Part shown: piece by piece, positions 4,829 to 59,638 of the stretch
Position numbering within the stretch: position 1 is the stretch's first letter
Layout: each line of letters starts with the position of its first letter
NCBI GenBank assembly: GCA_946965045.2
Contig: OX337237.1
Coordinates: forward strand, 3,100,001 to 3,164,000
Reading direction: 5' to 3'
Length of the DNA stretch: 64,000 nucleotides
From: Epithemia pelagica
Lineage: Eukaryota > Protista > Bacillariophyta
Position numbers and translations under genes: made by a program
Notes under the pieces: model-generated
Told to the model about the DNA's origin: nothing
Databases searched by the model: none
Seen by the model: only the letters and a program-made list of their open reading frames with translations

Positions 4829-4829
<1 letters not shown>

Positions 4830-4913
<84 letters not shown>
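4830..4913. repeat. (AGT)28 microsatellite
   Basis: Perfect 84-bp trinucleotide run starting 29 bp after the LRR stop codon. Confidence 0.97.
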
Positions 4914-4914
<1 letters not shown>

Positions 4915-24824: not shown

Positions 24825-25311
24825 ATGCTGGTCGTACTACCAAAGAGGACGAGAGGAACGGAAGCGAATCGAATCGTAAACTGTCCAACCGACTGACGAG
24901 CGTGTGATGGTGTGAGACTCCCAAAGCAGACGTGGGGTGTCTTCTTTGCCAACGGAGAGAGAGAAAGAGAGGCCACCCTGTCGTCGTGTGTCTTGCAGCA
25001 CGATCGTGTGTATCCAAGAGAGACAAACAAAGCACCCAAACAAAAGGTGCGCCGCCGCCATGGACATGTGAGAGTGCGTGACCGTTGCGCAGCCCGACAC
25101 GTACGGACACGTCGGTAAAGTGTATCCAGACAGCCATTTTATTCTGTCTGTTTCTGTCAGTATAAGAGCGACGGATGATCCCGACAACGACGAACATGTC
25201 GGTGAAGCTTCTACAGACAACCTGTGTTATGTCGGTTTTAGTCCGTTGAAGAACGACCCGGATGTTGAGATCGGAACACGACAAAACGACATTTCCCACA
25301 CTGAATGGAAG

Positions 25312-25629
25312 TGTTGAAAAAGGAGACGAAGAAGGACCAACAAAGGGAACGGTCTTGCCGTCAACCCTCAATGATGAACGAAATCCCAATGACAATCCCA
25401 AGCAGAAAGAAAACAGTAACGTACTGAGTGGCCCAGATAAGAAAGTGTCATGCCCAGATAAGAAGGTGTCATGGACGAAACCGTCCTACGCGGAGATCGT
25501 CAAACGATCTCATTCTATTGAGTTAAAACGTAACGAGAGTAATAGCAAGTGATTTCTAAAGGAAACACAGCGCACCTCCGTAGAAGAGCACCGGATCGTT
25601 GAAGACGAACCTCAGCCCTCCTTCCAACA
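25312..25629 (+). repeat. Copia 5' LTR
   Basis: TG...CA termini; matches 31730-32047. Confidence 0.97.
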
Positions 25630-26299: not shown

Positions 26300-26845
26300 A
26301 TGGCTGCACAAGACGACGACATTGAAGACATCCTTTTCCGTCTCCAAGAGCTAGCCGCTGAGCAAGTAGTGCTCCTTGATCGTCTGTCTTCCCTTCGAGA
26401 GGTGGAGAGACTCGCATCACCGACCGCGCCAAACGCGACGAACCAAGAACCTCAACACCAAGAAGAGACAGCAGAGGATTCTCGTGCTGACCGCACACAA
26501 GGAAGACTTAGTCCACACCACCCACGGGCAGATCAGAGTCTTTGGGGTCGGAATATCAGTGTGCGGCGTTTTAACCCAGGCGACGCTGTTGAGATACTCA
26601 ACCCGGTACCACCAGAGGTCGAAGGAGGAGTGTCCACCCGAAGGGATCACACGGGTGTGACTTACAAGACAGCGGGAAACTGGGTCTACATTTACACCGA
26701 CACCGGTAGACACATACAACGAGACAGGAAGAACGTTGCATTATTGACGAGGGCCCGTGATGAGTACATCACCTCAATCGCAGGCGCCCCCCTCAGAAGG
26801 AGCGACCTCGAACGGTGGCAGTACCACGAGCGGGCAATCGTCTAG
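26300..26845 (+). CDS. Copia accessory ORF2 (181 aa): leucine-rich helix plus KOW/SH3-like beta-barrel
   Basis: ATG ORF. The C-terminal FNPGDAVEILN...GVTYKTAGNWVYIYTDTGRHIQRDRKNV has a KOW/SH3-like pattern (inference). It overlaps the gag start by 86 nt. Confidence 0.6.
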   Translation: MAAQDDDIEDILFRLQELAAEQVVLLDRLSSLREVERLASPTAPNATNQEPQHQEETAEDSRADRTQGRLSPHHPRADQSLWGRNISVRRFNPGDAVEILNPVPPEVEGGVSTRRDHTGVTYKTAGNWVYIYTDTGRHIQRDRKNVALLTRARDEYITSIAGAPLRRSDLERWQYHERAIV

Positions 26846-29800: not shown

Positions 29801-31970
29801 GCAAGAAGAAGGAGCGCAAGAGCCAGGAGCGCAGGAAGACTCTGCCACGCAAGAAAACAACGCGGGTGTCTACAACCTGCGTGCGGACCGCGAGAGGTCC
29901 TATGAGCACAGGTACGACCATCAATACCTGCATTTTGCGCTAGCACAAGTTGCAGCCCGCTTCTTGCCCGAAGCAACAATGAAGGAAATCAACAAAAACA
30001 ACGCGTGGGATTTGGCGACGAGCAAGTACATTCAGCCAAACCGCCCCAGCATCGCGAATGCCACACAAAAAATACAGCGCGAGGTCATGCTGACCCAAAT
30101 GAGTGCCGCTGCGGGCATCAAAAGGTACGGACAACCAGCCATCGACGCGCTCCTCAAGGAATTTCTGCAGTTGGACGAACAAGCAGTCTTCGATCCCAAA
30201 CATGCACATGAGCTGACAAGAGAACAGAAGCGCGAGGCGCTTCGTTCTGTAAACCTCATCAAAGAGAAAAGATGTGGAAAGATCAAGGGGCGCAGCTGTG
30301 CCGACGGACGCCCACAACGCGACAAATATGACAAAGGCTCAATCGCGTCTCCGGCATTGTCTAGCGACGGACTAATGTTCACACTCATGATAGACGCCAT
30401 CGAGCGTCGGGACGTCGCAACAGCCGACATCGCGGGAGCCTATTTGAAGGCACTCATGCCTGACTTTGTTCTGATGAAGCTAGAGGGACCTGTGGTCGAT
30501 GTTTTTTGCAAGATGAACGAGGGGTATAAGCAGTACGTTACTTTTGAGAACGGAAAGAAGGTGATCTACGTGAGACTAAACAAGGCGTTATACGGCTGTG
30601 TTCGGTCAGCACTGCTGTGGTATGAGATGCTCCTTGGCGCACTGAAAGAAATGGGTTTTGAAGTTAACCCCTACGAACAGTGCGTAGCCAACGCCATGAT
30701 CAACGGAACACAAGCAACCATTGCGTGGTACGTGGATGATTTGAAGATATCACACGTACAAAGCGAGGTCGTGACGGACATCATCAAGGAATTGGAACGT
30801 CGGTTTGAAAAAATGACGGTAACACGTGGAAACGAACACACGTACCTAGGCATGAACATCGCATTCAAGGGTGACGGAACAGTCGAATTAAAAATGGAAC
30901 AGTACATCGATGAGGCAATCGCGGCTTTCGACGAACCAATCACCAACACGGCACCAACTCCAGCCAAGAAGGATCTTTTTGAGGTCAATCATACGGCTAT
31001 GAAACTGCCAAAAGAGAAGGCCGATATGTTTCACAGCATCACGGCGAAACTCCTGTATATGTCAACACGCGCACGATCAGATATCCAGACAGCCATTGCT
31101 TTCCTCACCACACGTGTGAGCACATGCACCGAGCAGGACCGCATGAAGCTCAAGCGCGTCCTTGAATACTTACATGGAACAAGAGACCTCACCTACATCC
31201 TCGCCGCCGACGACGTCCGGAACTTAGTGACCTGGGTCGACGCATCGTACGCGATCCACTCCGATATGAAAAGCCACACGGGTGGTGTCATGTCACTCGG
31301 ACGAGGAGCACTGGTGACGAAGTCTCGAAAACAAAAGCTTAATACTAAAAGCTCCACCGAGGCAGAAGTTGTTGGTGCGAGTGACTACCTACCCAACACC
31401 ATATGGGCTAAACGCTTCTTAGCCGAACAAGGTTATGACGTCAAAAGCACTTTCGCGCAAGATAATCAGAGCGCAATCCGACTTGAGAAAAATGGACTGC
31501 GGTCCGCCGGGAAGCAATCCCGGCACATTGACATACGCTTCTTCTTCATCAAGGATCGTGTCGAACAAGAGAATATTGAAATCCTTTACTGTCCAACGGA
31601 ACAAATGTTGGCCGACTTTTATACCAAACCATTACAAGGAGCCCTGTTTCGAAAGTTTCGTGACGTACTTCTGGGCCATAAGCACATCAACACACTAAAG
31701 GACAAGACCGCTCCTATGTTGGAGGAGCGTGTTGAAAAAGGAGACGAAGAAGGACCAACAAAGGGAACGGTCTTGCCGTCAACCCTCAATGATGAACGAA
31801 ATCCCAATGACAATCCCAAGCAGAAAGAAAACAGTAACGTACTGAGTGGCCCAGATAAGAAAGTGTCATGCCCAGATAAGAAGGTGTCATGGACGAAACC
31901 GTCCTACGCGGAGATCGTCAAACGATCTCATTCTATTGAGTTAAAACGTAACGAGAGTAATAGCAAGTGA
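26760..31970 (+). CDS. Copia Gag-Pol polyprotein (single ORF)
   Basis: Zinc knuckle CYRCKGFGHYANGC; protease WVLLDSQSTVS; integrase (LCADVLF..., HVGDVERSVRTIKERVR); RT (ADIAGAYL, YVDDLKIS); RNase H (WVDASYA, STEAE, QDNQSAI). First ATG at 26760. Confidence 0.96.
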   Translation: MSTSPQSQAPPSEGATSNGGSTTSGQSSSGGNGNRRGGRNGRGGRGRRNNNGGSGGTRGQGKAKFKGDTSAMNGHVFQVFAECDDKRQFAKTIEALGAYIAKELKYPDDLVTLTRDLENPTIEEPTEPPEDETSRVRIAMFEKECQLCVTRQHELNGNLRAIFAVIWGQCSEAMKAKLQGLDEFKERERRNDCAWLLKEIKGIRHRFEEKRYYPLSLRDALANFYSYRQGPGESLSDYLQHFRYNVDVLEHYGGQVGADPGLLTMVEEEDDELTGELEFARAAKDRLLAIQFLHNADGKRFGGLLVDLENQHSRNTDQYPRDLASAYSLLVSYRPPKVPTPSQPASENASSSSGASSGAPATSDGLQFVQNGLPVPGTDGILHENVKCYRCKGFGHYANGCPVSPDELQLLQSTTSSGFSFAQAAVSLPKSWVLLDSQSTVSVFCNRSLLMNIRPSANAMTVHTNGGSQTSHLVGDVPNFGTVWFNPDSIANILSLAAVRRVCRVTMDSAGDASFLVHRTDKPPLVFHEVNSGLYVHDTAAPSAVPLTFVSTVSANAASFSPREVEGAQQARRLYRLLGRPSQRDFESALKNNLIRNSPVTSDDAKRALIIYGPDVAALKGKTTKRKSTHVPSITPTPVSPSIKDAHGQLTLCADVLFVQGLPFLHTIARHIKFRTITAMNTSGNPSASHIMNDLQGILQMYRTRGFVVSDLHADLQFEPLRNRLLPIHLNVAAQDDHVGDVERSVRTIKERVRSTVHGLPYRWYPVIMVKELVIHAIKSLNQLPSAFGGISPTESPRKIVTGLPDPDYSKMKIEFGQYAQVFEDNTPSNTNAARTTGAIALNPTGNEQGSYHFMSLTTGRKLARNQWTPLPITSDVIERVHQMAQAQRQKEITGGNLLFEWGPNDEVPDDDADVEDTDDGDIGTQQEDAPADEAVVHEPPAPPNDVQQQDEDVHDDHQPPEQNDQDALVAEVAEVSESEEGASDNADETMEIVLEEEADNDSEPLFPQENADTQEEGAQEPGAQEDSATQENNAGVYNLRADRERSYEHRYDHQYLHFALAQVAARFLPEATMKEINKNNAWDLATSKYIQPNRPSIANATQKIQREVMLTQMSAAAGIKRYGQPAIDALLKEFLQLDEQAVFDPKHAHELTREQKREALRSVNLIKEKRCGKIKGRSCADGRPQRDKYDKGSIASPALSSDGLMFTLMIDAIERRDVATADIAGAYLKALMPDFVLMKLEGPVVDVFCKMNEGYKQYVTFENGKKVIYVRLNKALYGCVRSALLWYEMLLGALKEMGFEVNPYEQCVANAMINGTQATIAWYVDDLKISHVQSEVVTDIIKELERRFEKMTVTRGNEHTYLGMNIAFKGDGTVELKMEQYIDEAIAAFDEPITNTAPTPAKKDLFEVNHTAMKLPKEKADMFHSITAKLLYMSTRARSDIQTAIAFLTTRVSTCTEQDRMKLKRVLEYLHGTRDLTYILAADDVRNLVTWVDASYAIHSDMKSHTGGVMSLGRGALVTKSRKQKLNTKSSTEAEVVGASDYLPNTIWAKRFLAEQGYDVKSTFAQDNQSAIRLEKNGLRSAGKQSRHIDIRFFFIKDRVEQENIEILYCPTEQMLADFYTKPLQGALFRKFRDVLLGHKHINTLKDKTAPMLEERVEKGDEEGPTKGTVLPSTLNDERNPNDNPKQKENSNVLSGPDKKVSCPDKKVSWTKPSYAEIVKRSHSIELKRNESNSK
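31721..31729 (+). promoter_or_regulatory. Short polypurine tract before the 3' LTR
   Basis: GGAGGAGCG abuts the 3' LTR start. Confidence 0.6.
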
Positions 31971-32047
31971 TTTCTAAAGGAAACACAGCGCACCTCCGTA
32001 GAAGAGCACCGGATCGTTGAAGACGAACCTCAGCCCTCCTTCCAACA
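31730..32047 (+). repeat. Copia 3' LTR
   Basis: Copy of 25312-25629; the pol ORF reads 241 nt into it. Confidence 0.97.
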
Positions 32048-38643: not shown

Positions 38644-38866
38644 CCGCATCGTACCGCCCCCGGTCAAGAAGGGACCGACGGACGAACGAGGAACGGACAT
38701 TGCACCCAAAGAAGATCCCATAAGATTTGCAAGGCTACGTCGTCGTTTGTTGGGGCAGTCAAAATGACTATACCCAACAAACATACTTTGACGATTCATA
38801 AATCGTCGGAAAGAAGGGTTGAACGGATCACCAAGGATCTGATCACCCATTGGACCCGTGATTCTC
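38644..38866 (+). repeat. Terminal direct repeat A1 of YR element 1
   Basis: Matches 47024-47246 except GGAAAGAAGGG vs GGAAAGGAGGG. Confidence 0.93.
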
Positions 38867-38924
38867 TTCTTTCGCTTCGCTTTTTCGCCTTGTCGACCGT
38901 GCCATCCACCTCATTCGTTCCACC

Positions 38925-41297
38925 ATGACGTTTGCGTGGGGAGGAACTCCGGATTATTCGCCTTCTGTGGGGTCGTCAGGTGAGTCTGTTTCTGGTGGGA
39001 GTGTGACCGGGGGGGGGGGGAGCCTGCGTTCGGGTTCTCTCTACGGTGTCGTTCGTATTGAACAGTCACAGTTCGATACCGTGTGTCGTGGATTCGTTGG
39101 CGCAGGGCAGCGCATGTGTGTTCGTTCGGATTGTCAAGTGGCTTCGCATTCCCAAAAGAAGAAGTCGTGGAGTTTGCTTGTGGGGGATGATACCACCGCC
39201 ATCTTCATTCGTGGTTCAAGTGGGACAACTTCTGCTGAAGCGCCGGGTACAGTCTTTTGTACACCTGTGCTACCGGGACATTGTATGCAAGGCGTGGACC
39301 GGAACGAAATGGAACTTAGTCCTCGTACATTGGAGAGTTGGCAAGCCTCGTTTACAGCCCTTCGGAAGGCTTCCTCCGAGTCGGGTGAAGGCGTGGATCC
39401 CACAACTGCGGCTCAGTTCATGGAGACCACCAAGTCCGTAGTAGATTTCACCATGACTCCGCGCCCGAAGAAACGATCAGTGGAAGTGGAAACGGTTATG
39501 GACGATGACGATGAAGACGGTTTGGTTACACCCAAGCTCAAACGCCGCAAAATTCCCTGGAAGGACGTCCCCACTGATATCAGTACCTCAACGCCTACCC
39601 CAGCGGTAAGGATCCTTCAAGGAGGAGCGTAGAGCAACCTGGTTGAGAATGTCACCACACTTTGTGACGATCTTGCTCGCGAAGTGGCGGATTGGCGCGT
39701 GTCTGAAGAGCAACAAGAAGAGCAGGTTGACAAACTGGATCTCAAGCTATCGGTCCTTCATGAATTGCTGGGAAAGCGGCCGTCTCACTTCGGGACGTGA
39801 TCGGCTTTTCAAGTTCTGGATAGTTGCGTATCGAACATGGCGTCGGTCGAACAGTTGGTCATTGAACGTTTGAATCAACAGAAGACTCCAAGCTTAACTC
39901 GAGACGATTCGGTCCTTGAGAGCAAGCTTGCAGCATTGGACACTCGAGTTGGATTGTTGACTGGCCAATTCAAGGTGCTCGTCAAGAAGGAACTCGAAGC
40001 TTTCTTGGCAGACACTTCAACTGATTTTCGTTTGCAGTTTGTTGATCCGACCTTGTCGTTACTCTCGCGGTCGTCGCGCTCTCCCACGGATCCCGGGGGA
40101 AAATGGGCTGATGCCCTACAACAATTGCAACAGCGGTTGACGAGTCTCGAACAAGCGCATGCAACGAATGTATCAGGTTCGGGAGGGTCAGGAGGCATGA
40201 GTGCGGGCGGTGGTTCTTTCAATTGGTCAACTGGAGGGCTTGCTTCAGGAATAGGATCACAGACAGGATTGGGAGTCCGTTTTGGTTCGTCACCCTCTCA
40301 GACGAATGGTGGAAAGGATGTTGGAAGAGAAGTGGGTGTTGATTTGGCGAAGCTGCAGGAAGATATGAAAAACTTGCAGACGATGTTGAAGGATTTGAAA
40401 GAGCAAGTGGATACCAATTCAATCCCGATCGGATCGATTATCTTTACTTCTCGTGCCTTTTGCGTCACATGGATGGAGTTGCACCATGCCGCATCGGACC
40501 CTCACGTTTTTGTGGATGCCATCTCGTTGCTTTCTTTGGCGACATCGGATGCTAGCCCAGACGAAGAAAGGGCAGCCAACCAACGAGCAACCACGGCCAA
40601 GGTTAGGGATAAAACACCCTATCACACGGCCTTTATAGCGTCGTTCAACCTCGAAGTACCACCGTTGTTGGGGAAAGGGTCTGATCAAGCAACAACGACG
40701 AATTCCCGTGCTCTCGGGGCTGTTCCACGTTTTGCGGACTTTCACCCTCCGTCAGGGCGTGAAGGCATCCACCAGCGTATTTTGGATTATGTAAAAGACG
40801 GTGTGCATACAATAGAGCAAGCAGTGGGTGAGCTTTTTGCATTTGGGACGGAACCGTCGAGTGTTGCCAAGGAACTGCTCTTGTGGAGTAAAACCTTTTG
40901 GGATGAACTTACTCATTGGATGGTCAGGTACCACGCTCAGGTTCAGGCGGAAAGTGAAGCAAGCGAACAGGAAGTGTGGATCTTGATATCCCACTGCGTT
41001 TGAGCTGTGTTCAAGAGCCTCAGGGAAGCTCGTGCATCTGGACGAGCTTCGAACACTCCAGGTGGGATGCTTTGGGGTACTCTCAAGGCACACCGAGTAA
41101 TGCAAGAGTACCGTGCTGCAGATTTTAGCGGCCATCCGAAGATTGTGCTCATTCTCCATGAGCATTTGATTAGATTCACAACACCGCGTTCCAAATTCGA
41201 CACACTTCAGATGAGTTTGAATGATAGGCTGGACAAAATGCAACGGGCGGTATATCAAGCAGTTTCGTCCGCGAACAAATCGACAAAGAAGACGTGA
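38925..41297 (+). pseudogene. YR element 1 ORF1 (gag-like), disrupted
   Basis: N-terminal C-x10-C-x4-C-x4-H motif; colinear with 51229-53567. TAG at 39630, a frameshift near 39660 and TGA at 41001. Confidence 0.85.
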
Positions 41298-41396
41298 GAG
41301 CTTCAAGAAAATGACCGCAACAGTCGTAAAACTACGAAACGAAAGACAACATCAAGCGAAGAATTGGAGACTCAAGATACCAATATGAAAAATTAG

Positions 41397-44300
41397 CGAG
41401 CCAAGACATTAAGGATTACTTTAGGATACATGCAGCCACAGAGACAAATGACGGAGTTGCCGAACGCATGGAGTCCAAGATATCCGTAGGAAAAGGAAAA
41501 TGGCGAGTTGGGTTGGTGAGCACAAGCACCCCCTTTTGGTTTTGGGCGGTAGCTTCGCTAGGAGAAGTTGTCTGGATAGATGTTTTGGATAAGGAATTGT
41601 TAAGTGAGGAAACGGGAGCGATGGATTGGAGAAGTCAAGCATTGGACCTGCAGCCAAGGCAAACAAAGAATCGCGGAATTAAGCGACGCAGAGTTTCTTA
41701 CTGGACGGCAGCAGATTGGTCCACAAGGGAGACTGTGGATATCATATTCTTTGAGAGGGGCATAGTCCCAGGCCCGGATCATGATGTATGGAGACAGTCG
41801 GAATTGAAGCTGGTATTTTGGATAGGAGGAAAGAAGAAGGGTGGCCCTCCATTGACTGAAGCGAGTCAATGGAAACAAGGCATCATGAAATTGGATCACA
41901 CGGACCTCGGTGGGGTTACAAACCTCGAATCCTGGATTCATGTTTCAGAGCGAGTGGACTCAGATGAGAGGCGGTTCGTGGATTGTTGGGCAGACCATTT
42001 GGAACAGGGTCTGCAGCACACGACGTTCCGAGGAATCGTGGATCCGACAATACAGGGGAAGGAGTGTCCTCTGAGACTGTTTCATGATGATAGCTCTGAG
42101 AGGAATGTATGGAAGAGAGGAGTGTCGATATTGGAAAGGAAGATGGTGTGGAAGAAGGACGTTGCAAGGACACACATTCTTCCAAGTGTGTTCACAACAA
42201 GATCGGGCTTTGTGGAGCGCAAGATTTCTTCAAGGGAGCTCGCAGTGGCCTTGGATTTTCCGGCTGCGTTGCATAAAAAGGGGTCAGAGCAAGAACTCGA
42301 TCGTTGGACTGTGGACATCGGCGTTCCTTTCAAGAGCCGAGTCCAAGTTGCGTGATCCATTCTGGGATGGATGAATGATAGAAGGAAAGCGAATGATCAG
42401 AAAGAAAGATCAGACGAAATGAGTGAGGAATCGTTGTCGGATATGGGACAGGGGCCGAGATCACAAACGCGAATGACGGAGAACTGCGAATTGTTCACAT
42501 CTCTCGATAGCGAAGGTGGAGGCTCTTTAAACATGGAAGAACGAAGGGAGGACAGGAATTTGAAGGCGACAAAAGCGGATGATGCCGAAATCCCGACTTA
42601 CTTGTGGGACGACAGAATCTGCTCGCACTTTGGTATGACAAGCGTGAGCGATCGAGGACGAGGCATCAAGGCTCTGTCGGTAATACGGCGCGTGGCGTTG
42701 AAGTATTGGAAACGGTTGGTGTGTAGTGACTTTTGGGGATGGTGGAAAAGTCAACGTTTTAGAGACGACAATGATGAGAAAGAAAGGACGATACGAGCAG
42801 GGTTAAGTGCACTCACGCATGCTTCCCAAGCCTCATGGTGGGACTGGGATCATGGATCCTCTCCATTCTTTTGGAGAATGCCCAAGCTTGACTGGCTCGT
42901 GGAGATGCGCGATGGAGTGGAACCGATGTGGATCGGGGATCCGCCCGCATACCGACGAAGACAGCAAGCGAATCCGGATCCAGAGGCTCGCGCTCTAGAA
43001 AAGAAGAAACTGAAGAAAGTTAGACATCGAGGGTACATTGTGAAAACGGCGGACATCAAGTCGCTTACCAGTTTCTTTTCGGTGCCGAAAGGCGACACGG
43101 ATATACGGATGGTCTATGATGGAACCAAGAGCGGTTTAAACGACACGCTTTACGCTCCGTGGTTTGGTCTCGGCAACGTCACGTCCATGTTGAGAACTGT
43201 TGAAGCAAAGACATGGTCGGCTGACAACGACTTTGGGGAGATGTTTTTAAACTTCTGGATCCACCCGGATCTCAGAAAGTATACTGGCATCGACATCACC
43301 GAACTCTTTCCCGAGGAGGAATTGAAAGAGAAGTATGGAACGACTCGGCTTTGGGAGGCGTGGTGCCGATGTGCCATGGGTTTGACTACGTCGCCTTATC
43401 AAACCACACAGTGTGCCCAAAGAGTCAAACGGATCATTTTTGGAGACAAATCGGATCCGAACAATATCTTTGGTTGGACTGACGTGCGTATCAATTTGCC
43501 AGGGGATGATCATTATGATCCATCGCTTCCGTGGATAAGTAAAGTGAGAGCCAATGGAGATATCGCGGCCGACGTCCATCCATATGTTGACAACTTACGC
43601 GAAACGGCTCCAACGGAAGAAGAAGCGTGGTAAGCTGCAAGTAAGATGGCCAAGGGAGCATCTTACTTCGGACTTCAGGATGCAGCAAGGAAGCGACGCT
43701 CCCCAAGTAAATCACCAGGGGCATGGGCCGGTGCAGTCATCGAGGCAGCCAACGATGGAAAGGTGTACAAAACAGTGGCGCAGGAAAGATGGGACAAGAC
43801 TCGGAATTTTGTCCACACTCTCAAAGATTGGGCAGACGACGGTGGATTGGTGGATCGTAAGGAATTGGAGCGTATCAGAGGTTTTCTCGTATACGTTTCA
43901 CTCACTTTTGATATTATGGTTCCTTATTTGAAAGGGATCCATCTGACCCTTGAATCATGGAGAGACGACAGGGACGAAGAAGGTTGGAAATTAAATGAAA
44001 AGGATCGTAGAGCTGTGATTCGGAAACGGGAAAGGGAGCTCCATGCGCCACCCAAGGTAAAACAGGCTCCACGATTCAAGGACGACGTGAAGGCATTGGT
44101 TAGACTGACGGAGCAAGAACATCCTCCAAAGATCTTGGCACGACCGACGTCTGGAGCAAAAGTAGCAATGATCTTTGCCGACGCGTCTGGTGAAGGGTTT
44201 GGGTCTTCACTGTGGATTTATGGAGGATCTACAGTAGACACTGAGCACGGTCTATGGACTTGAGAGTATGGCTCCCGCTCGTCAAATTTCAGGGAGTTGT

Positions 44301-45109
44301 ACAATCTTGTTCTGAGACTAGAGAGACTGGTTCAAGACGGAAAACTGCCCGAAGGAACCGAGGTGTTTATGTTCACGGACAACTCGACGGCAGAGTCTGC
44401 GTTCTACAAGGGAACGTCATCCTCGAGATTGCTGTTTGAATTAGTGCTGCGAACAAAACAGTTGGAAATGAATGGTCACATTTTTGTTAGAGTGATCTGG
44501 GTCGCCGGTACAAGAATGATAGAGCAAGGGACCAACGGTCTTTCTCGTGGCGATCTTATGACTGGAGTCATGACCGGTTTAAACATGCTCCTTTACGTAC
44601 CATTGAACAAGACGGTGATCCAACGTCAGGAGAATGTTGTACCCTGGCTGGAGTCAGTTGGGCACACTGCATACAAGTGGAGAGTTTTACAAACTCACGA
44701 GTGGTTTGATGAGGCGTTCGAGGACGGGGAATTTATTTGGACACCACAGTCTGCTATTGCAGATGTGGCAGTTGACTTGTTATGCAACGCTCGCCACATC
44801 CATACTAGAACCGCACACATGTTTGTTTGCCCTGCGTTAATGACTAACAGGTGGCGAAAGAAGTTGGGGAAGGTGGCGGATTTTGTTTTTACCATCCCTG
44901 TAGGCACCGAATTGTGGCCAAAGTCTCATCACGAACCGTTGATTGTTGGTTTTGTATTTCCTTTTCTTTGCAGCCCTCCATGGCAAGTTAAACGAGCGAC
45001 AAGCTTATTGGACGAGGTGGAAGGGAAATTGCAAAGCATGTGGGCATCCGGTACAACCTCTGTCCGGGATCTGCTGCGCAAACTTTGGCGTTTCAAGGGG
45101 AACGAGTAA
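41397..45109 (+). pseudogene. YR element 1 ORF2: MTase-like N-terminal region, reverse transcriptase, RNase H, C-terminal MT-like domain; disrupted
   Basis: FFSVPKGDTDIRMVYDG, DFGEMFLNF, MGLTTSPY, YVDN (YVDD in copy 2), IFADASG, FTDNST, IWTPQS. Stops at 42353, 43631 and 44261. The 5' boundary is placed at a predicted splice acceptor; the first ATG is 41468. Confidence 0.88.
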
Positions 45110-46517
45110 GACATGTACCGGAATATGGCACGCGAGATGCTATCGGCAATTTGAAGCGGATAAATTTCCAGTCTTGCAGGCCTCGGATTTGGATGATGCC
45201 TTGCTGGATTTAGAGGGACACGGCGAATTGGATGACGATGAGCACCGTTTTAAGGAGGCACGTCCTGGGGATGACCTCATGGTGGCCTTCCAATGTGATG
45301 ATTGTTGTTTTTACAACTTGCAAGGACGATACCTCTCACCACGGGAAGAAGACAAGCTCCTACAGCTCTGCATTCACAGAGCTATTTTGGATTCGTTCTG
45401 GGCACGAGAAAGATCAACAGTCGAAAAGAACTGGAGGGAAGTCAAAGGCTTATTGGAAACAAGTGCCACAATGGGGTTGGACTCACCTTTGCCGAACCGA
45501 GGTCCTTTCGTTGTTGGAGATGACAATGGCCTAAATGTTGCCTGCATGATGCTGATGAAGACGCTGAGAGCAGGCAAGAACTCGACCCACATTCAATTTG
45601 AGACAGCGCGAAAAGTGAGATCCGCCGTATCTAACTTCTTCCATACAATACCGGGAGGGACTGGTTTGGCGACTGTGGGACAAGGCGAAAGGGGAGGTCT
45701 GTTTTTTAGCGCGAGCTCCACAAATTCCCATTGGTTCCGGCGATTCATGACCGGGTGCCATCGCAGAATGGGGGACGTCTGGATCCCAGACCAAGCTGTC
45801 ACCGTTGATGAAGTCAAGGCTGCGCTTTCCATATTAGAAGATGAGTGGATCGGCGGAGCGACAGGACAACGAAAGGTGGAAATCGCTTTAACAGGCGCAA
45901 TGGTTGTTGTTGGATACGTCGCCGCATTGAGAGGAGAAGAGCTGCCGCAGATTGATGTTGGATTAATGCGCAAGTATTGGGAAGAAGGGCTGAATTATTC
46001 AAGGAAGAAGCACGTTCCCCTTGCCTTAGCGGGTCGATTCAAACAGACCACAGGGACCTTCCGAGTTTATATGCACCCGTTGGCAGAAAAAACGTCGTCT
46101 GGAATAGACGTCCGACAGTGGTTAGAGAGAGCGATTTGGTGCTTGCACCAACAAGGAGTGACCAGCGGGCCCATGTTTCGGATCACTAAAAAGCGAGGAC
46201 AAATCGCTCGTGCATCGGTCGGAGACCTGGATTCGCTTTTCCACCCATTATGGAAACGAGTACAACATCGCTTCCCAGGTCTGATTGGCGAGTCAGTGAA
46301 AGTGGATGAAGATTACAGCGTGAGGAGATCTTTTCGTCGGGGAGCAACCACAGAAGCTCAAAATCGACAAATTCCCAGAGAGGTAATAGAAATGAACAAC
46401 CGCTGGCGAAAGCACATTAAGGGCAAGGGAGTACTGCCCAACATGTCCATGTTGGAACGTTATTCGGACGCTAAAGCTTCAGTGGAAGCTCTTGTCAGGT
46501 TCTCAGAACTGCTGTAA
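44943..46517 (+). CDS. Tyrosine recombinase of YR element 1 (open frame, 5' end uncertain)
   Basis: Catalytic-type motifs ALRGEE, GRFK, RSFRRGATT, NNRW and ERYSD, plus a Cys-rich N-terminus. Overlaps the end of ORF2 in another frame. Confidence 0.88.
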   Translation: MLVLYFLFFAALHGKLNERQAYWTRWKGNCKACGHPVQPLSGICCANFGVSRGTSKTCTGIWHARCYRQFEADKFPVLQASDLDDALLDLEGHGELDDDEHRFKEARPGDDLMVAFQCDDCCFYNLQGRYLSPREEDKLLQLCIHRAILDSFWARERSTVEKNWREVKGLLETSATMGLDSPLPNRGPFVVGDDNGLNVACMMLMKTLRAGKNSTHIQFETARKVRSAVSNFFHTIPGGTGLATVGQGERGGLFFSASSTNSHWFRRFMTGCHRRMGDVWIPDQAVTVDEVKAALSILEDEWIGGATGQRKVEIALTGAMVVVGYVAALRGEELPQIDVGLMRKYWEEGLNYSRKKHVPLALAGRFKQTTGTFRVYMHPLAEKTSSGIDVRQWLERAIWCLHQQGVTSGPMFRITKKRGQIARASVGDLDSLFHPLWKRVQHRFPGLIGESVKVDEDYSVRRSFRRGATTEAQNRQIPREVIEMNNRWRKHIKGKGVLPNMSMLERYSDAKASVEALVRFSELL

Positions 46518-46586
46518 AAGGGAACAGGCGATGCAAGGAAGGGATGTCAGAATGGAGAAACCGAATTCAAGTTGGAAACGAAGATG

Positions 46587-46942
46587 GAACGACCACACGG
46601 GGAGATGACTCGACTATACCTCTTATGGGGTATGTCCAGGTCGCTTTGATGACTGTCAGCTTGTCTGTTGATGGGAGGGAGATCCCTCTCCTGGTTGGCA
46701 TGTTGGGGTGTGGCAACCTTGACATGCTGACCGTCCTTTTCTTGCGAAGATACTTTCGAAGATTGGGGCTCACCCTATGGTGAGTAAATGGAGAGTGGGT
46801 GTTCTAGCCTAGAGGCACACTCGCACGCAGCATACACGGGGTAGCAGAATCTGGAGTTCTGCGACCGTGGCGCGATTCCGGATCCCTCCCGATACTGGGA
46901 TATGGGTGGGGGGGCCTAGTCCCCCCCAGTGTTGGTTAAGTA
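46587..46942 (+). ncRNA. Conserved structured non-coding region 3' of the recombinase (copy 1)
   Basis: Colinear with 58904-59251; several stems show compensatory changes between the two copies. Function unknown. Confidence 0.55.
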
Positions 46943-47023
46943 ACATCTTTATACTATATTATTGCAAACGAGAGGTCATGGGATTTGATTGGTGCACAGG
47001 TCGTGACGACTGAGGATGAAGTA

Positions 47024-47246
47024 CCGCATCGTACCGCCCCCGGTCAAGAAGGGACCGACGGACGAACGAGGAACGGACATTGCACCCAAAGAAGATCCCA
47101 TAAGATTTGCAAGGCTACGTCGTCGTTTGTTGGGGCAGTCAAAATGACTATACCCAACAAACATACTTTGACGATTCATAAATCGTCGGAAAGGAGGGTT
47201 GAACGGATCACCAAGGATCTGATCACCCATTGGACCCGTGATTCTC
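47024..47246 (+). repeat. Terminal direct repeat A2 of YR element 1
   Basis: Copy of 38644-38866. Confidence 0.93.
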
Positions 47247-47373
47247 GTCTCATTTTTTGTTCGTAGAAGACCCTTTCTTCCTGTGGCTGTCCTATTATAT
47301 TTTTTCATACACTCCTTTCGATTCCCCTTTTCGATTGACTCCACACCTCATTATTTGTGAAAAGAGGAGAAGA

Positions 47374-49611
47374 ATGGCATCGTCTTCTTTTTTCCCTTCT
47401 TCGTTTTCCATCCAGCCTTTGTTGGGCGCCAAAAGGAAGGACACGACCAAAAACCAGCCAGAGGATCCTCTTAAACAACAACAACAACAACAACAACATG
47501 GCCGTTCTTGTCCTCATGCGGGGCGCTGGCTGATTCTTGCCGTGTTGGTGTGTCATGGTTGGGCCATGTCCTTTTGGGTCACCATGAACACAACGACAAT
47601 AACCACTAGTTCTCGGGACGACCCACAGCAGCGACAGCAACACAAACAACAACAACAAGAAGAAGAAGAAGAACGTTCCTTCCTCCCCAACACCACCCTT
47701 GTCCGCAAGAATTCGAGCAGCATCACCAACACCAACAGGACGGTTGTTGCTAGCACTGGAGAAGACTACCCGAATCGACTCGGACCACGAGGACACAACC
47801 AACCAACGAATTCGACATTTCTTACAACAACAACGACGGGGCATTCATCATACCCAAAACATCGTCGACCGAAACAACAACAACAACAACAACAACAACG
47901 ACGACAACAAGAACCACCACCACAACAACAACAACAAGCACCAAGTTCCATCGAACACAAGACCATCACCACTACTACTACTACTAGAGCCCCCCAAACG
48001 AATTCCAGCAACCCCTCTACCACTACCAATACTACTCCTACGGGGGAGAAAGACCCAGAAGGACAAGAACCAGAACAACCACAAGACGGTTCCTCCAAGC
48101 AAAACAACAACATCACTGCTACCACCGCAAAGACCCCAACAACATCGAGTTCTTTAAATATCACCCTTTGGTGTTTGCTGGATAACGGTTCGACCGAGAC
48201 CTTTTTTCATTTTCCCCATGCCCTTCAATCACTCAGTTTGTGTTGGAGTTTTTTTATGGACAAACAAGCCGAATTACAACAAGCACGAACGGAAATCTCC
48301 GAGATCCACAGCAACAGCAGCATGACGACTCCTAGTCCTACAACACCAGTCACAACAACCTGGATTCCGTGTCACATCAACATGCACGAAAAGCTGAAGC
48401 CCTTGAAGTCAGTCGACAAGGATTGGCGTGCGGCCTTGGTGTTCCAGGTCATGGGATGCACCGTTTCCTACCATTCTTACAATATTTCTCAACTGACTCA
48501 CAATGGTGGGAGTCTACCAGTGATGAATGGAACACTCCACCTGCCAGACAAGCACAATCACACACCACAGGACAACAAAATGAATAGTATACAAAGAGAC
48601 TTACCTCGTTCCAATGCGACTCATCAACATTACTTGTATCGACCCAAGCGAGAGGATGTGTATGGCCTTCGATTCTTTTGGCATCCTCGACATGCCCGAC
48701 AACTATACCAGCGCCTTCAAGATACTTTGGCAACAACCAAAAAGGACCGCAACCCTAAAGAGGAGGCTCGAACTACGACAACAAACACCACCAGCACCAC
48801 CACGACGATTTCGGCACCACGGACTCCTCCGCTCTCGATTGGATTGGTCAATCGACGAAAGAGTCGACGGATTGGAAACATGGATCAGATTGCAGAGGCC
48901 CTTGGGCAACTCTATCCGCACGCTCAAATTCAACAGACCGACATGGATGATATGGCCACACCCTTGGATCAATTTGCCTGGTGGTCCCAGCACTCGCTCG
49001 TGATTCTGCCCCATGGAGCTTCCAGTACCAATCTTGTATTTTTGCCGGCAGGAGCAGCCGTCATTGAAGTGTTTCCACCCCATTATTATTGGTGGGGATT
49101 TTTGAAGTTGGCTCATTCCATGCAAGTACGATATTATGGCTACTTTCCCATCTTGATCGAATCGAATACAACTTTGAATAGTACATACACGACAACGCCA
49201 CCTGATGCTGCCAATAGGACTTTTACAGATCAACAACTCCAACGACGACGACAACAACAACAACACGAACGGGCTGGGAACATGGTGTTGGACGACTTTC
49301 GTCTCTCGTGTCCCGTGTTTAAAGATCGGCAGAAATATCGCGCCATTCCCGTCATGAAGCCCTCCATTCCGCATCTCATGGTTCTCGTGCAACGAGCCCT
49401 TGACGAAGGACAGCTCGTTCCACAAAACCAGCAACAGGTGGGAAGGAACAACAACAACCAGTCGTTGTACTACACTCCCCAAATTTCGCACATTGAACCC
49501 GCATGTCATTCGGTCCGAAATAATGTCGAGCGTGCCCGAAGCACCATGGTACATTCGTTGAATTTGGACGATCCACCCGAATCTCTCATACAACGGTCTG
49601 GAGGATCCTGA
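47374..49611 (+). CDS. Type II membrane glycosyltransferase, GT61 (DUF563)-like, 745 aa
   Basis: N-terminal TM WLILAVLVCHGWAMSFWV and a T/Q/N-rich stem. The catalytic region has FFHFPHALQ, IGLVNRRKSRRIGN and LDQFAWWSQHSLVILPHGASSTNLVFLPAGAAVIEVFPP, the PHGA-x-N motif typical of GT61. Confidence 0.8.
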   Translation: MASSSFFPSSFSIQPLLGAKRKDTTKNQPEDPLKQQQQQQQHGRSCPHAGRWLILAVLVCHGWAMSFWVTMNTTTITTSSRDDPQQRQQHKQQQQEEEEERSFLPNTTLVRKNSSSITNTNRTVVASTGEDYPNRLGPRGHNQPTNSTFLTTTTTGHSSYPKHRRPKQQQQQQQQRRQQEPPPQQQQQAPSSIEHKTITTTTTTRAPQTNSSNPSTTTNTTPTGEKDPEGQEPEQPQDGSSKQNNNITATTAKTPTTSSSLNITLWCLLDNGSTETFFHFPHALQSLSLCWSFFMDKQAELQQARTEISEIHSNSSMTTPSPTTPVTTTWIPCHINMHEKLKPLKSVDKDWRAALVFQVMGCTVSYHSYNISQLTHNGGSLPVMNGTLHLPDKHNHTPQDNKMNSIQRDLPRSNATHQHYLYRPKREDVYGLRFFWHPRHARQLYQRLQDTLATTKKDRNPKEEARTTTTNTTSTTTTISAPRTPPLSIGLVNRRKSRRIGNMDQIAEALGQLYPHAQIQQTDMDDMATPLDQFAWWSQHSLVILPHGASSTNLVFLPAGAAVIEVFPPHYYWWGFLKLAHSMQVRYYGYFPILIESNTTLNSTYTTTPPDAANRTFTDQQLQRRRQQQQHERAGNMVLDDFRLSCPVFKDRQKYRAIPVMKPSIPHLMVLVQRALDEGQLVPQNQQQVGRNNNNQSLYYTPQISHIEPACHSVRNNVERARSTMVHSLNLDDPPESLIQRSGGS

Positions 49612-50960: not shown

Positions 50961-51177
50961 CGCATCGTGTCGCCCCCGGTCAAGAAGGGACCGACAGACG
51001 AACAAGGAAAGGTCATTGCACCCAAGAGTCTCCCAATGCAAGACAACGTCTGTTGGGCCGGTCATTCTATGACCGGTCCCAACAGAGCTTTGACGATTCA
51101 TAAATCGTCGGAAAGAAGAAGTGAACGGGTCATCAAGGATCTGATCACCCATTGGTTCCGTACATCTTTTTCTTTCG
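50961..51177 (+). repeat. Terminal direct repeat A1 of YR element 2
   Basis: Matches 59331-59547 and shares core blocks with the element 1 repeat. Confidence 0.92.
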
Positions 51178-51228
51178 GTTCGGTTTGCTTGTCTTGTCGG
51201 CCGTGCCAACCACCTCAAGTGTTCTGCC

Positions 51229-53567
51229 ATGACGTTTGAGTGGGGAGGAACTCCGGATTCTTCACCTTCTGTGGGGTCGTCAGGTGAGTCGAGTGTTAGT
51301 GGCAGTGTGACCGGGGGGGGGGGAGCCTTCGTTCGGGTTCTCTCTTCGGTGTCGTTCGGTTTGATCAGTCTTCTTTCGAGACTGTATGTCGAGGGTTCGT
51401 GGGCGCTGGGCAGCGCGTGTGTGTTCGGCCAGAATGTTCCATCGCGTCGCATTCGCAACGCAAGCAAGACTGGGCTTCTCTGTTTGGAGATGAGACCACT
51501 GGGGTTTTTATCCGTGGTACAAGTGGGTCTGCATCTTCTGATGCATTGGGCACCGTCTTCTGTACACCTGTCCTAGCCGGCTCCTGTTTGCGCGGAATTG
51601 ATTGGACTGAGATGGAGTTAAGCCCCCGAAGCTTAGAAAGTTGGCAAGCAACGTTTTCTACTCTACAGAAGGCTGCTTCCGAGTCTGAGGACGGAGTGGA
51701 TCCAACCATGGCGGCGCTGGTGATGGAGTCAACCAAGACGGCGGTGGATTTCACTATGACGCCGGGAAGGAAGCGGCAAGCCGTCGTGGTCGAAACAGTG
51801 TCGGAGGAGGATGAAGACCTAACCACTGTCAGGACCCCCAAGATGAAACGACGGGAGATGCCGTGGAATGAGGTGCCCCTTGACATTGGCAACTCACAGC
51901 CCACTCCCACGGTGAAGGTCTTGCAGAGTGGTGCATGGAGTAGTTTGGTGGAGAATGTAAATTTGTTGCGAGAAAATCATGACCGAGAAGTTTCGGATTG
52001 GCGTGAGGCAGAAGTAACGCTGGAGGAACAACTGGAGAAGATGCAAGTCAAGGTGTCAGTGTTGCACGAACTGTTGGGCAAGCGCCCAGAGCAGTTTGGG
52101 ACACGGTCCGCTTTTCAGTTGTTGGAGGTTATCATGACCACTGTATACGCATTGGAACAGATGGTGTTGGAACGGACGACGGATCGCAAACCACCCACGA
52201 ATGTCGAGGACAGAATGAACAAGCTGGATAGTCAAGTCCAAGAACTATCAAGCCGTCTCAAGAGTTCGGTTCGTGCAGAATTAAATGGTTTTCTGGGCGA
52301 TGATTCGACCGAATTTTGCAGGCAGTTTGTGAATCCCACGCTCACTTTGTTATCGAAGTCGTCGGCCTCGAATGCCAATCCAGGAGGCAAGTGGGAGCAG
52401 TTGCTTGAGAAGTTGCAGGACAGAATGAAGTCGTTGGAAAAGAAGGTTCTGCGAACCACAAGTGTAGATTCGACCAGCAGGTCTGGGGGTAGCATGTTTT
52501 CCTGGTCGTCAGTCGGACCGGATGTGGACAGTCAAGCAGCGAGTCGGTCTGGTTCGTCGACAGGAGTTGGAGTCAGATTCGAAGATTCCGTGGCCGATGG
52601 GGCTCGGAATGATATTTCAATGCTGAAAGAAGAGTTGCGTCAGATGCGTGCCAAACTGCACGACTTGCAGCAACAGGCGGATTCAGATTCAATCACCATT
52701 GGGTCGCTTGTTTTTCCGTCAAGGGCCCATTGTGTGACTTGGTTAGCCTTGCACAATGCAACGGCCGATCCACATGTCTTTGTGGACGCAATATCTCTAT
52801 TGTCACTTGCAACCTCCGATGCCAGTCCTGACGAGGAGAAAGCGGCCAATCAGCGAGCGACGACAGCCAAGGTTCGCGATAAGACGCCATATCACACAGC
52901 GTTTATCGCGTCGTTTAACTTGGAGGTCCCGCCATTGCTTGGCAAAGGCTCCGATCAGTCGACGACTACAAATTCGAGAGCTTTGGGCGGTGTACCCAAG
53001 TTTGAAGATTTTCATCCTCCGTCGGGCCGCGAAGGTATCCACCAACGCATATTGGATCATGTAAAGGATGGCTCTTTGACAATTCAACAGGCGGTGGGAG
53101 AGTTGTTTGCGTTTGGTACCGAACCATCCAGTGTGGCCAAGGAGTTGCTGCTGTTAAGCAAAACCTTTTGGGATGAACTGTGTCATTGGATGGTTCGGTA
53201 TCATGCACAGGTGCAGGCCGAAAGCGAGGCGAGCGAGCAAGAGGTGTGGATATTGATATCCCATTGCGTCCGTGCCGTTTTTAAGAGTTTGCGTGAAGCA
53301 AGAGCACCGGGAAGAGCATGCAATACCCCTGGTGGAATGTTATGGGGGACTCTTAAGGCTCACGAAGTGATGAAGGAATATCGTTTGGCGGATTTCAGCG
53401 GTCATCCTAAGATCGCTCTTATTTTACATGAACACCTAATTCGGTTTGCGACGCCTCGCTCAAAGTTTGATTGGTTACAGGCGACTATCAACGAGAGGCT
53501 AGATAAGATGCAAAGGTCGATCAATCAGGCAGTGTCGTCGGCGAATAAAGCGGGAAAGAAGGCGTGA
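51229..53567 (+). pseudogene. YR element 2 ORF1 (gag-like), one frameshift in a G run
   Basis: ATG at 51229. G11 at 51313-51323 (G12 in copy 1) shifts the frame; the rest is open to TGA 53565-53567. Confidence 0.85.
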
Positions 53568-53627
53568 TTGGGCAAGGAGGAGCGACGGAGCTCCACTTTG
53601 GATCGAAAGCGAAAGCTGATAGATGCA

Positions 53628-56600: not shown

Positions 56601-57381
56601 GCCCTTGTCCGTGACGGGACGGTACCGAGAGGAACCAAGGTTTACATGTTCACCAATAATTCGACGGCAGAGTCTGCCTTCTACCGAGGGACTTCGTCAT
56701 CAAAGCTTTTGTTTGAGTTGGTATTGAGGACCAAGAAGTTGGAGATGGAGGGACATGTTTTCGTTCGCGTCGTCTGGGTAGCAGGGACGCGCATGATTGA
56801 GCAGGGCACTGACGGTCTGTCGCGAAGGGATCTGATGGCCGGTGTTATGGCTGAGCAAATATGCTTCTGTATGTGCCATTGAATAAATCAGTGGTGGATC
56901 GACAGGACGATGTGATACAATGGTTGAAGGAATGTGCTCGAAGACACACTTGGAAGTTACTGAAAATCCACAAATGGTTCGATGAAGCGTTTGAAGCAGG
57001 GAATTTCATTTGGGATCCACCACCGGCAATAGCTGATATCGCAGTCGACTTGATGTGCGAAGCAAGGCACATCCGAACACACACAGCCCACATCTTTGTC
57101 TGCCCAGCGCTTATGACAAATCGCTGGCGGAAGAAGCTGGGGAAAATTGCTGACTTCGTTTTTACTGTGCCCGTTGGGTCGTCATTGTGGTCCAAATCTC
57201 AACATGAACCTTTGATTGTTGCATTCGTTTGCCCTTTTTTGTGTAGTTTACCTTGGCGGGTCAAAAGAGCCGACGTCTTACTGGACAGAGTGGAAGGGCA
57301 ATTGCATGGCTTGTGGTCATCCGGTGCAGCCGCTGTCAGGGATCTGCTGCGCGAATTATCGGAATTCACGGGGACGTCTAG
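53628..57381 (+). pseudogene. YR element 2 ORF2: MTase-like region, RT, RNase H, MT-like domain
   Basis: YVDDLRE, IFADASG, SSNYRELYNLV, FTNNST, GTDGLSR, IWDPPPAIA. Premature TGA at 53706 and 1-nt deletions near 56853 and 57374. Confidence 0.88.
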
Positions 57382-58791
57382 GGTTTGTCAGGGAATATGG
57401 CACGCGGCCTGTTACAAACAGTCCGAACATGACAAGTTTCCTGTGTACGAGGCGGCTGATCTCGATGATGCTTTATTGGATGGAGAACTGCACGGAGAGA
57501 TGGAAGATGATGACAAAAGGTTTCAAGAAGCAAGAACGGGGGATGATTTGATGAATTGCTTCCAGTGCGACGACTGTGCGTTTTACAACATGCAGGAAGG
57601 TACCCTATCATGGAACACGACGCGGACTCATTGTTGATGCTTTGCATCCGCCGTGCAAATTTAGATGCATTTTGGTCAAGAGAGAGGACAACTGTGGAAA
57701 GAAATTGGCGTGAGATGAAGAGTTTGATTGCAACAAGCAAAACTATGGGTTTGCACAAACCGTTGCCCCAAAGAGGACCGTTTCGAATCGCAGACGACGT
57801 GGGCATGAATGTTGCGTGTGTAATGCTGATGAAGACCTTAAGAGATGGACGCAACTCGAAGCACATTCAATTCAAGTCTGCAAGAAAAGTGAGGTCAGCT
57901 GTTTCCAACTTCATGCACTCACTCCCTGGGGGCACTGGTCTGTCGACAGTTGCGCAAGGCGAAAGGGGAGGTCAATTTTTTAGTGCAAGTCCAACCAATT
58001 CATATTGGTTTCGACGTTTCATGTCTGGATGTCACAAGAGGATGGGTGACGTATGGTTGCCTGATCAAGCTGTCACTGTTGATGAAATCAAGGCTGGTCT
58101 AGCAATATTAGAGGAGGAGTGGTCAGGCGGTGCGGTGGGTCATCGCAAGACCGAGTTGGCACTTACCGGGGCCTTGGTGGTAGTTGGTTATGCTGCGGCA
58201 TTACGAGGCGAAGAGATTCCACAGATAGATGTGGGACTCATGCGCAAGTACTGGGAAGAGAGGTTGAACTACGAGAGAAAGAGGCACGTGCCTCTGGCTC
58301 TAGCTGGACGCTTTAAACAAACGTCTGGAACGTTTCGAATATTCATTCAACCCCTGGCCGATGTAACCTCATCAGGCATTGCGATAAGGACGTGGATTGA
58401 AAGAGCTATTCGTTGCCTGGACTCTGAGGGAGTAAAATCAGGCCCCATGTTTCGAACCGTAAAACGGCAAGGGAAAATCGCTCGAGCAACGGTTGGCGAT
58501 CTGGACAGTCTATTCCATCCCTTATGGAAACGAATCCAACATCGCCATCCCCAGCTGATTGTCGAATCAACAAAGATCGAAGATGTTTACAGTGCTCGGC
58601 GATCTTTTCGGCGAGGAGCAACAACGGAGGCTCAAAATCGTAACATCCCGGACGACATCATTCAAACCAACAATCGATGGAAGAAACATTTGAAGGGAAG
58701 GGGAATTTTGCCCTCAATGAGTATGATTGAACGATACTCTGATGCAAAGGCGTCAGTGGAATCGTTGGTGCGCTTCTCAGAGTTGATGTGA
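57216..58791 (+). pseudogene. YR element 2 tyrosine recombinase, two 1-nt frameshifts
   Basis: ALRGEE, GRFK, RSFRRGATT, NNRW and ERYSD. Frameshifts near 57374 and 57596 relative to copy 1. Confidence 0.88.
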
Positions 58792-58903
58792 GGTCGACTG
58801 GAGTCTGATGTCGGATATGGAAAGCAAAAGGGAATTAAGTGAGAAGGAAAGGAGGAAAAGTTACACAAAGGAGAAAGAAGAAAACTGAACTTACGAGAGT
58901 GAA

Positions 58904-59251
58904 GAACGACCGCACGGGGAGATGACTTGACTATACCCTTCGGGGAAATAGTCCAGGTCGCTTGTTGATTGTCTGCTTGCCTGGTGAAGATTGGGGATCC
59001 TCTCTCTACGTTTGAAGGTTTGGGCGTGGCAACCTGGACCGACAAGCATCCATGTCTTGCGAAGATATTTCGGAGGCATGGCCTTACTTTGTGAGGAAAT
59101 GAAGGGGGTTCGTTGATTGGATCCACACTCGCACGCAACAAACATGGTATTGCAGAGTCTGGAGATCTGCGACCGTGGAGCGATTCCGGATCCCTCCTGA
59201 ATTTGGAAATATTGGGTGGGGGGCCTATATCCCCACAGTGTTGGTTAAGTA
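58904..59251 (+). ncRNA. Conserved structured non-coding region 3' of the recombinase (copy 2)
   Basis: Homologue of 46587-46942; includes a C(TTCG)G-capped hairpin at 58921-58961. Confidence 0.55.
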
Positions 59252-59330
59252 TTATTTTAGTAGTTTAAGTTATGAAGAATGGATTGGGAACGATTGGGCT
59301 GCAATACCGAGACGCGTGAGGAAGAAGTAC

Positions 59331-59547
59331 CGCATCGTACCGCCCCCGGTCAAGAAGGGACCGACAGACGAACAAGGAAAGGTCATTGCACCCAAGAGTC
59401 TCCCAATGCAAGACAACGTCGGTTGGGCCGGTCATTCTATGACCGGTCCCAACAGAACTTTGACGATTCATAAATCGTCGGAAAGAAGAAGTGAACGGGT
59501 CATCAAGGATCTGATCACCCATTGGTTCCGTACATCTTTTTCTTTCG
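59331..59547 (+). repeat. Terminal direct repeat A2 of YR element 2
   Basis: Copy of 50961-51177. Confidence 0.92.
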
Positions 59548-59638
59548 CTTGTTTCATGTTCCATACTCTCCTCTTTCGATTGTCGATTCCCCTTTTCGAT
59601 TGACTCCACACCTCATTATTTGTTAAAAGAGGAGAAGA

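Follow-up and report, generated by a model that had tools for sequence, protein, structure and literature searches.

Comparative signals for a probable spliced recombinase mRNA and probable UGA readthrough in a family of tyrosine-recombinase retrotransposons

Known systems and the elements of the window

Retrotransposons of the DIRS order combine a tyrosine recombinase (YR) ORF with a pol that encodes a reverse transcriptase (RT) as well as an RNase H (RH) and with a Gag-like ORF1, as described in the accessible text of three papers on the order (PMC3266345, PMC4157794, PMC8547959). In the available portions of these and related papers, DIRS1-like elements are characterized by inverted terminal repeats with an ICR, PAT-like elements by split direct repeats (A1-B1-A2-B2) and a methyltransferase (MT) domain after the RNase H, and Ngaro elements by the lack of an MT domain and, usually, of ORF overlap (PMC3266345, PMC4157794, PMC8547959, PMC3783388, PMC6681497, PMC12477816). 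The literature searched, exclusive of subscription papers, book chapters and Repbase reports, reports neither splicing nor readthrough as an expression route of DIRS-order elements, and its accessible text does not address the translation of overlapping second and third ORFs in these elements; the splicing in PMC7192593 concerns, in the text available, a reporter intron only.

Both routes have been described in other retroelements. According to the accessible part of one source, MLV produces Gag from unspliced RNA, Gag-Pol by in-frame readthrough with a downstream pseudoknot and its 3' gene from singly spliced RNA, and foamy viruses express pol from a spliced RNA (PMC9143442). Among Ty1/copia elements, EVD has a spliced subgenomic gag RNA, again according to the text available (PMC8616336).

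The window, that is, the whole 64-kb stretch of DNA analysed here, contains two related tyrosine-recombinase retrotransposons (element 1, 38644-47250; element 2, 50961-59550; Table 1) that are 67% identical to each other. Each is flanked by direct repeats of about 220 nt, and the order of the ORFs is the same: a Gag-sized ORF1, ORF2, and a third ORF, the recombinase, that overlaps ORF2. Both copies are decayed, with in-frame stops and 1-nt frameshifts, some of which are missing from other sequencing runs. The premature stops of element 1 are located at 39630, 39798, 41001, 42353, 43631 and 44261; most of them are TGA, TAG or TAA where element 2 or other runs have CGA-, TGG- or CAA-type codons, position 41001 is C in 3/3 runs, and the pattern of decay is consistent with CpG methylation. 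The only named relatives of the two elements are proteins of the diatom Epithemia clementina, which makes the host diatom-like. A wider sample of 80 metagenome loci, 28-55% identical, was fetched with a recombinase profile; clustering of 40 recombinases yields 18 groups at 60% identity and 5 at 50%, and no relatives were found in the viral and prokaryote collections searched.

By its structure, the family is a member of the DIRS order. A DIRS1-like affiliation was rejected, the terminal repeats of the window elements being direct, not inverted. With PAT-like and Ngaro elements the family has in common ORF1, RT-RH and YR in one orientation, direct repeats and a Cre-like YR fold. The split repeats typical of PAT-like elements are present as A1..B1..A2 B2 in two relatives (L060 and L077), whereas the window copies show A1/A2, with no B repeat found. 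Ngaro elements lack the MT domain; in the family, an MT-like fold, with a match that is not decisive (Z below 8), occurs at the ORF2 end of one relative, and ORF2 and YR overlap in most members. With the split repeats, the MT-like fold and the overlap, the family appears to fit the PAT-like group better than Ngaro, as judged by published descriptions.

In its structure model, the recombinase resembles Cre, Xer and lambda integrase, with Cre as the best match (E 4.6e-4); sequence searches of Pfam and PDB gave no match for this protein. An RT in ORF2 is indicated by a YVDD motif and a weak RVT_1 Pfam match (E 0.045, element 2). At the ORF2 end of one relative (L002), an RNase H fold was detected (E 1.3e-5, Z 13.6), and residues 254-367 of the same model align with E. 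coli Dam (Z 7.5, thus below Z 8; rmsd 2.9; 97 residues aligned) and with T4 Dam (Z 6.4), other MTases being matched as well; the MT-like domain had no Pfam match. For ORF1, Pfam yielded no Gag family, so that this ORF is Gag-like by position and size alone. The N-terminal 400 aa of ORF2 (41400-42400), for which a Pfam search was likewise without a match, form a domain preceding the RT with the motif R-x-I-S-x-x-E-L-A-x-x-L-D-F-P, which presumably resembles motif X of C5 DNA methyltransferases.

Several other features of the window deserve mention. Near-identical (99%) host-like sequence lies directly downstream of both elements (47318-47661 and 59585-59923) and opens two tandem paralogous ORFs, of which that at 47242-49611 has a glycosyltransferase 61 match; such flanks beside elements that are only 67% alike possibly reflect a preference for certain target sites, or else a single site that received two insertions. 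At 4907-5483, terminal inverted repeats of 38 nt (95%) enclose 500 nt in a MITE-like arrangement that adjoins a TAG microsatellite. A 1,740-codon ORF (26748-31970) is enclosed by two identical direct repeats, each at least 300 nt long and separated by 6.4 kb (25311-25610 and 31729-32028), and together these probably represent a young LTR retrotransposon.

Table 1. Features of the two elements, in window coordinates
Feature	Position	Strand	Remark
Element 1, 5' direct terminal repeat (A1)	38644..38870	+	99% identity to 47024-47250
Element 1, coding leader (initial 18 codons + 1 nt of the Gag-like ORF1); predicted common first exon	38925..38979	+	
Element 1, predicted 5' splice site GTGAGT, phase 1	38980..38985	+	best among the element's 443 GT sites
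Element 1, G-run just inside the predicted intron	39003..39020	+	first 10 nt complementary to the terminal-repeat start
Element 1, ORF1 with coiled coil; Gag-like by position	38925..41297	+	3 in-frame stops in this copy
Element 1, ORF1 TGA, predicted readthrough codon	41295..41297	+	TGA in 26/26 elements; frame continuity from extra A, 3/3 runs
Element 1, TTAG, earlier proposed as ORF2 acceptor; rejected as conserved acceptor	41393..41396	+	
Element 1, ORF2: RT, RNase H, C-terminal methyltransferase-like fold	41298..45109	+	1-nt deletion near 41387; 3 in-frame stops
Element 1, predicted 3' splice site of the recombinase, with pyrimidine tract and CAG, within the ORF2 end	44944..44973	+	
Element 1, open tyrosine recombinase frame with Cys-rich N-terminus	44974..46517	+	no ATG before residue 112; model matches Cre
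Element 1, 3' direct terminal repeat (A2)	47024..47250	+	
Element 2, 5' direct terminal repeat	50961..51180	+	98% identity to 59331-59550
Element 2, coding leader, followed by the donor GT (51284)	51229..51283	+	best among 498 GT sites
Element 2, ORF1 TGA and stem-loop 3' of it; ORF2 continues in the same frame	53565..53600	+	fold z -2.5; 0/200 shuffles as stable
Element 2, predicted 3' splice site of the recombinase, with tract and TAG	57217..57246	+	
Element 2, recombinase frame, frameshifted in this copy	57247..58791	+	shift at 57369 absent in 3/3 runs
Element 2, 3' direct terminal repeat	59331..59550	+	

The predicted leader donor and recombinase acceptor

In both elements, the leader that begins with the Gag ATG (38925 and 51229) ends in CAG/GTGAGT, with the GT at 38980 and 51284 in phase 1. 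The first-pass annotation had proposed that this leader is spliced to the head of ORF2, at TTAGs ending at 41396 and 53676, and to the recombinase, at YAGs ending at 44973 and 57246. All these sites exist and the four joins are in frame, although the odds of 1 in 81 that were given for such an outcome count homologous sites as independent. The 52/55 identity of the two leaders is also as described, but it is not unique to the exon: positions 39001-39055, within the proposed intron, are 52/55 identical as well, and the terminal repeats reach 50-53/55, compared to 67% overall.

Across the family, 24 of the 25 elements that were scored have a phase-1 site as their best donor within 300 nt of the Gag ATG; these relatives are not independent, 14 of the 25 donors belonging to one clade, mostly from two metagenomes. 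By scores from an approximate weight table, and leaving out two loci with decayed ORF1 starts (L017 and L019), this donor ranks first among all 89-498 GT sites in 23/25 elements and second in one. Both elements that were found later carry a phase-1 GTAAGT, for a total of 26/27 with a strong phase-1 donor within 200 nt of the ATG. The leaders are 18-66 codons long, and those of the two main clades have no visible sequence in common. The codon before the donor ends in A in 24/24 cases, across 8 amino acids, and the Gly codon of the donor is GGT in 24/24, compared to 26% elsewhere in ORF1. By these comparisons, the conservation of the donor acts at the nucleotide level. Along Gag-Pol, it is the sole conserved donor in both clades; two scans for a second conserved donor within ORF2, about 2.6 kb before the acceptor, found none (at most 30% and 36%). 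The exception is L064, with GAG/ATGAGT (AT for GT) at the same place. In this locus (1810-9406), the usual acceptor AG is lost as well and ORF2 contains a stop, and it is perhaps a non-splicing, non-autonomous variant.

The second 52/55-identical stretch, just inside the proposed intron, holds a run of G. A run of at least 5 G is found near the Gag start in 25/25 elements; it lies 8-29 nt into the intron in 10/10 elements of the near clade, and upstream of the donor in the far clade. In the folds of both window elements, the run behind the donor (39003-39020 in element 1) pairs with the start of the terminal repeat (38657-38666).

The predicted recombinase acceptor, in the predicted phase, tops the 3,252 column-by-phase windows of the ORF2 alignment (39/44; mean 0.02, next independent site 0.47), the five exceptions being AAG. 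An AG-starting codon is present at this place in 44/44 sequences, either Arg (31, all AGR, background 42%) or Ser (13, AGY, background 20%), and it slides, being located 2, 3 or 4 codons ahead of a conserved Trp. When ORF2 was resampled synonymously, AG was expected 19.5 +/- 3.2 times, compared to the 44 observed, and YAG 12.4 +/- 2.9 times, compared to 39, and 0/2,000 draws reached either value. These acceptor, codon and resampling counts leave out near-duplicates (L007/L008, L021, L025, L054, L079) and a deletion variant (L023). The caveat attached to the original proposal, namely that the AG is part of an ORF2 Ser codon, is thus answered by the Ser/Arg switch, the sliding and the resampling. 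The tract in front of the acceptor, with 87% (element 1) and 80% (element 2) pyrimidines in the 15 nt before the YAG, also exceeds its synonymous null in the family (0.84 compared to 0.74; 0/2,000 draws), although its pyrimidines are mostly explained by the coding of a hydrophobic beta strand, which accounts for the null of 0.74. Branch-point-like motifs number 27, compared to a null of 23 +/- 1.8, and their enrichment is not significant.

Among more divergent loci, such an acceptor was identified in 16/20, a count that excludes 7 loci without the YR N-terminus and 6 with too little upstream DNA; a good YAG is missing in L023, L044, L047 and L076. In L071 and L068, ORF2 ends before the acceptor, and CTAAC or CTAAT, the tract and CAG then sit in non-coding DNA. 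In L071, moreover, the ORF2 and recombinase frames do not overlap and no ATG lies ahead of the Cys motif; therefore, neither a frameshift nor an ATG can reach this motif. The internal deletion variant L023 (3463-4925) has no RT/RH and has lost the acceptor AG, and its Gag TGA directly precedes G-ATG in the recombinase frame.

As to the earlier statement that the YR frame lacks a conserved ATG of its own, the stretch from the upstream stop to the first CxxC is free of in-frame ATGs in 26/43 recombinases, whereas in 17/43 one is present somewhere upstream. In element 1, the first in-frame ATG comes 112 codons in, after the Cys-rich part. Gene calls for these recombinases in the databases begin at scattered internal codons. 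Among the 15 joints listed for three DNA contig sets (129 more exist), none is at the predicted splice junctions. Leader-profile searches for leader-recombinase fusion proteins gave 13 and 7 matches to proteins derived from DNA contigs, and no fusion was seen among them (of the first 13, 5 were judged by their entire sequence and 8 by their Gag-like length; of the second 7, the 3 new ones were inspected).

The junction of ORF1 and ORF2

The stop codon of ORF1 is TGA in 26/26 elements, compared to 18/44 for ORF2 and 13/38 for YR. Behind it, 20/25 elements have at least 100 codons without a stop in the ORF1 frame, compared to 0/25 in the other frames; further stops in the linker were found in 5/25 (both window elements, L010, L032 and L036), one of which is explained by the deletion in element 1. 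ORF2 had been annotated in element 1 as a separate, ATG-less frame, but this is due to a 1-nt deletion. All three DNA runs have an extra A behind 41387, in an A-run, and ORF2 therefore continues the ORF1 frame behind the TGA at 41295-41297. Element 2, where the frame is continuous too, has an ATG codon that lies after the stop and before the TTAG. The location of ORF2 in the Gag frame behind an invariant TGA points to readthrough.

The base after the UGA is variable (T 11, G 8, C 7). In 12 elements of the far clade, nested stems and an H-type pseudoknot-like pairing follow the UGA (90.8% paired); 15/26 pairs are changed on both sides, and 0/500 shuffles matched this, a lenient control because the structure was derived from the sequences on which it was tested. 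In the near clade, the stem of element 2 lies 6 nt behind the stop (z -2.5), whereas no stem of significance was detected behind the UGA in element 1 or in 4 near relatives (z +0.2 to -1.4). The 80-nt windows right behind the UGA have, on average, unremarkable MFE z-scores (mean -0.57). L032 (1650-1733) contains a short duplication behind the Gag stop, with two more in-frame TGA-C codons.

The same data bear on two other routes to ORF2. The original proposal of an intron of about 2.4 kb, by which the leader would also be joined to the head of ORF2 and RT-RH would come from an mRNA of its own, as in foamy viruses, appears unlikely to us. In its favor, the TTAG is in phase in both window copies, and in 13/25 elements a phase-1 YAG with a tract of at least 60% lies no more than 250 nt from the ORF1 stop; in 6 far-clade members these sites cluster at +64 to +70. 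Another phase is, however, nearly as frequent among such sites (11/25), and their positions scatter. The TTAGs of the window were rejected as conserved acceptors; they are purine-rich, pyrimidines making up 33% and 40% of the 15 nt ahead of the YAG, and are not conserved. The AG of the recurring far-clade CAG at +64 belongs to a stem, where A-U is replaced by G-C in 6/12. No conserved phase-1 acceptor at the ORF2 head is among the top acceptors of either clade, and this route leaves the invariant in-frame TGA unexplained. Splicing of the recombinase might also be combined with reinitiation at a nearby ATG or GTG after the Gag stop, a reading that we consider very improbable. Many far-clade elements do have an ATG or GTG at a distance of 5-7 codons after the TGA, the second stop of L036 is TGA-ATG, and the TGA-G-ATG of L023 is of the same kind; but the variation between ATG and GTG is matched by compensatory changes in the helix, several elements have no start for 50-400 codons, and reinitiation requires neither the same frame nor a TGA.

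For the recombinase, the alternative is that no splicing occurs and that the protein arises either through +1 ribosomal frameshifting out of ORF2 or through an internal promoter, translation then beginning at a non-AUG or a downstream codon; the apparent splice signals would be by-products of constraint on the protein and on RNA structure. The overlap of ORF2 and YR in most members would suit a frameshift, the amino acids account for part of the acceptor tract, and the leader region also carries a conserved G-run that is able to pair with the repeat. This explanation is nevertheless quite unlikely given that both sites are conserved at the synonymous level, with matching phase and at sliding positions, that L071 has neither frame overlap nor an ATG, and that conservation includes the Cys-rich part ahead of the first Met, for which the model reaches a pLDDT of ~90.

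A model for expression of the family and its meaning

The donor, the recombinase acceptor, their shared phase and the in-frame TGA are direct observations, and all of them are conserved across the family, whereas the ORF2 acceptor of the first-pass annotation is not. From such comparative signals, we infer actual splicing and actual readthrough: the leader is very probably spliced to the recombinase, and Gag-Pol is, with good probability, produced by UGA readthrough. The two parts of the earlier proposal that concern unspliced RNA as the source of Gag and the excision of about 6 kb for the recombinase thus gain strong support from family-wide conservation.

Taken together, these results make it fairly likely that the family produces Gag, Gag-Pol by UGA readthrough and the recombinase by one splice. 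Under this model, a single transcript would give rise to three products. The unspliced RNA would be translated into Gag and, upon occasional readthrough of the UGA, into Gag-Pol. Removal of the ~6-kb intron, whose acceptor lies hidden among the final codons of ORF2, would place the short Gag leader, as the source of the ATG, in front of the recombinase.

This predicted plan resembles the three-product plan of MLV, with certain differences. The readthrough stop codon of MLV is UAG, that of the family UGA; the product of the spliced RNA would be the integrating enzyme rather than Env; and the donor sits within gag and lends its ATG, in elements that do not have the structure of an LTR retrovirus. 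A donor inside gag that lends its ATG is used for env in avian sarcoma-leukosis virus. With foamy viruses and EVD, the family would share the separation of retroelement proteins by alternative splicing, but its Pol is apparently not spliced, in contrast to that of foamy viruses, and its spliced RNA would encode the recombinase, not Gag as in EVD.

A broader reading, which we put forward tentatively and which may well prove wrong, is that a DIRS-order lineage has converged on the full plan of a simple retrovirus, with pseudoknot-assisted UGA readthrough and a long-intron subgenomic mRNA that provides the integrating enzyme with the start of Gag, and that loss of the intronic G-run bars this mRNA from being copied. 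The G-run of the near clade lies inside the intron (10/10) and can pair with the 5' repeat, so that splicing would keep the recombinase mRNA from being copied, in the manner of retroviral packaging signals.

The present analysis provides exact, testable coordinates for both the splice and the readthrough. If the model is correct, these elements would be another retroelement lineage in which retrovirus-like splicing is combined with recoding, and they would carry a natural UGA-readthrough signal in diatom-like algae. The model would also account for the fact that gene callers cut these recombinases at scattered internal starts.
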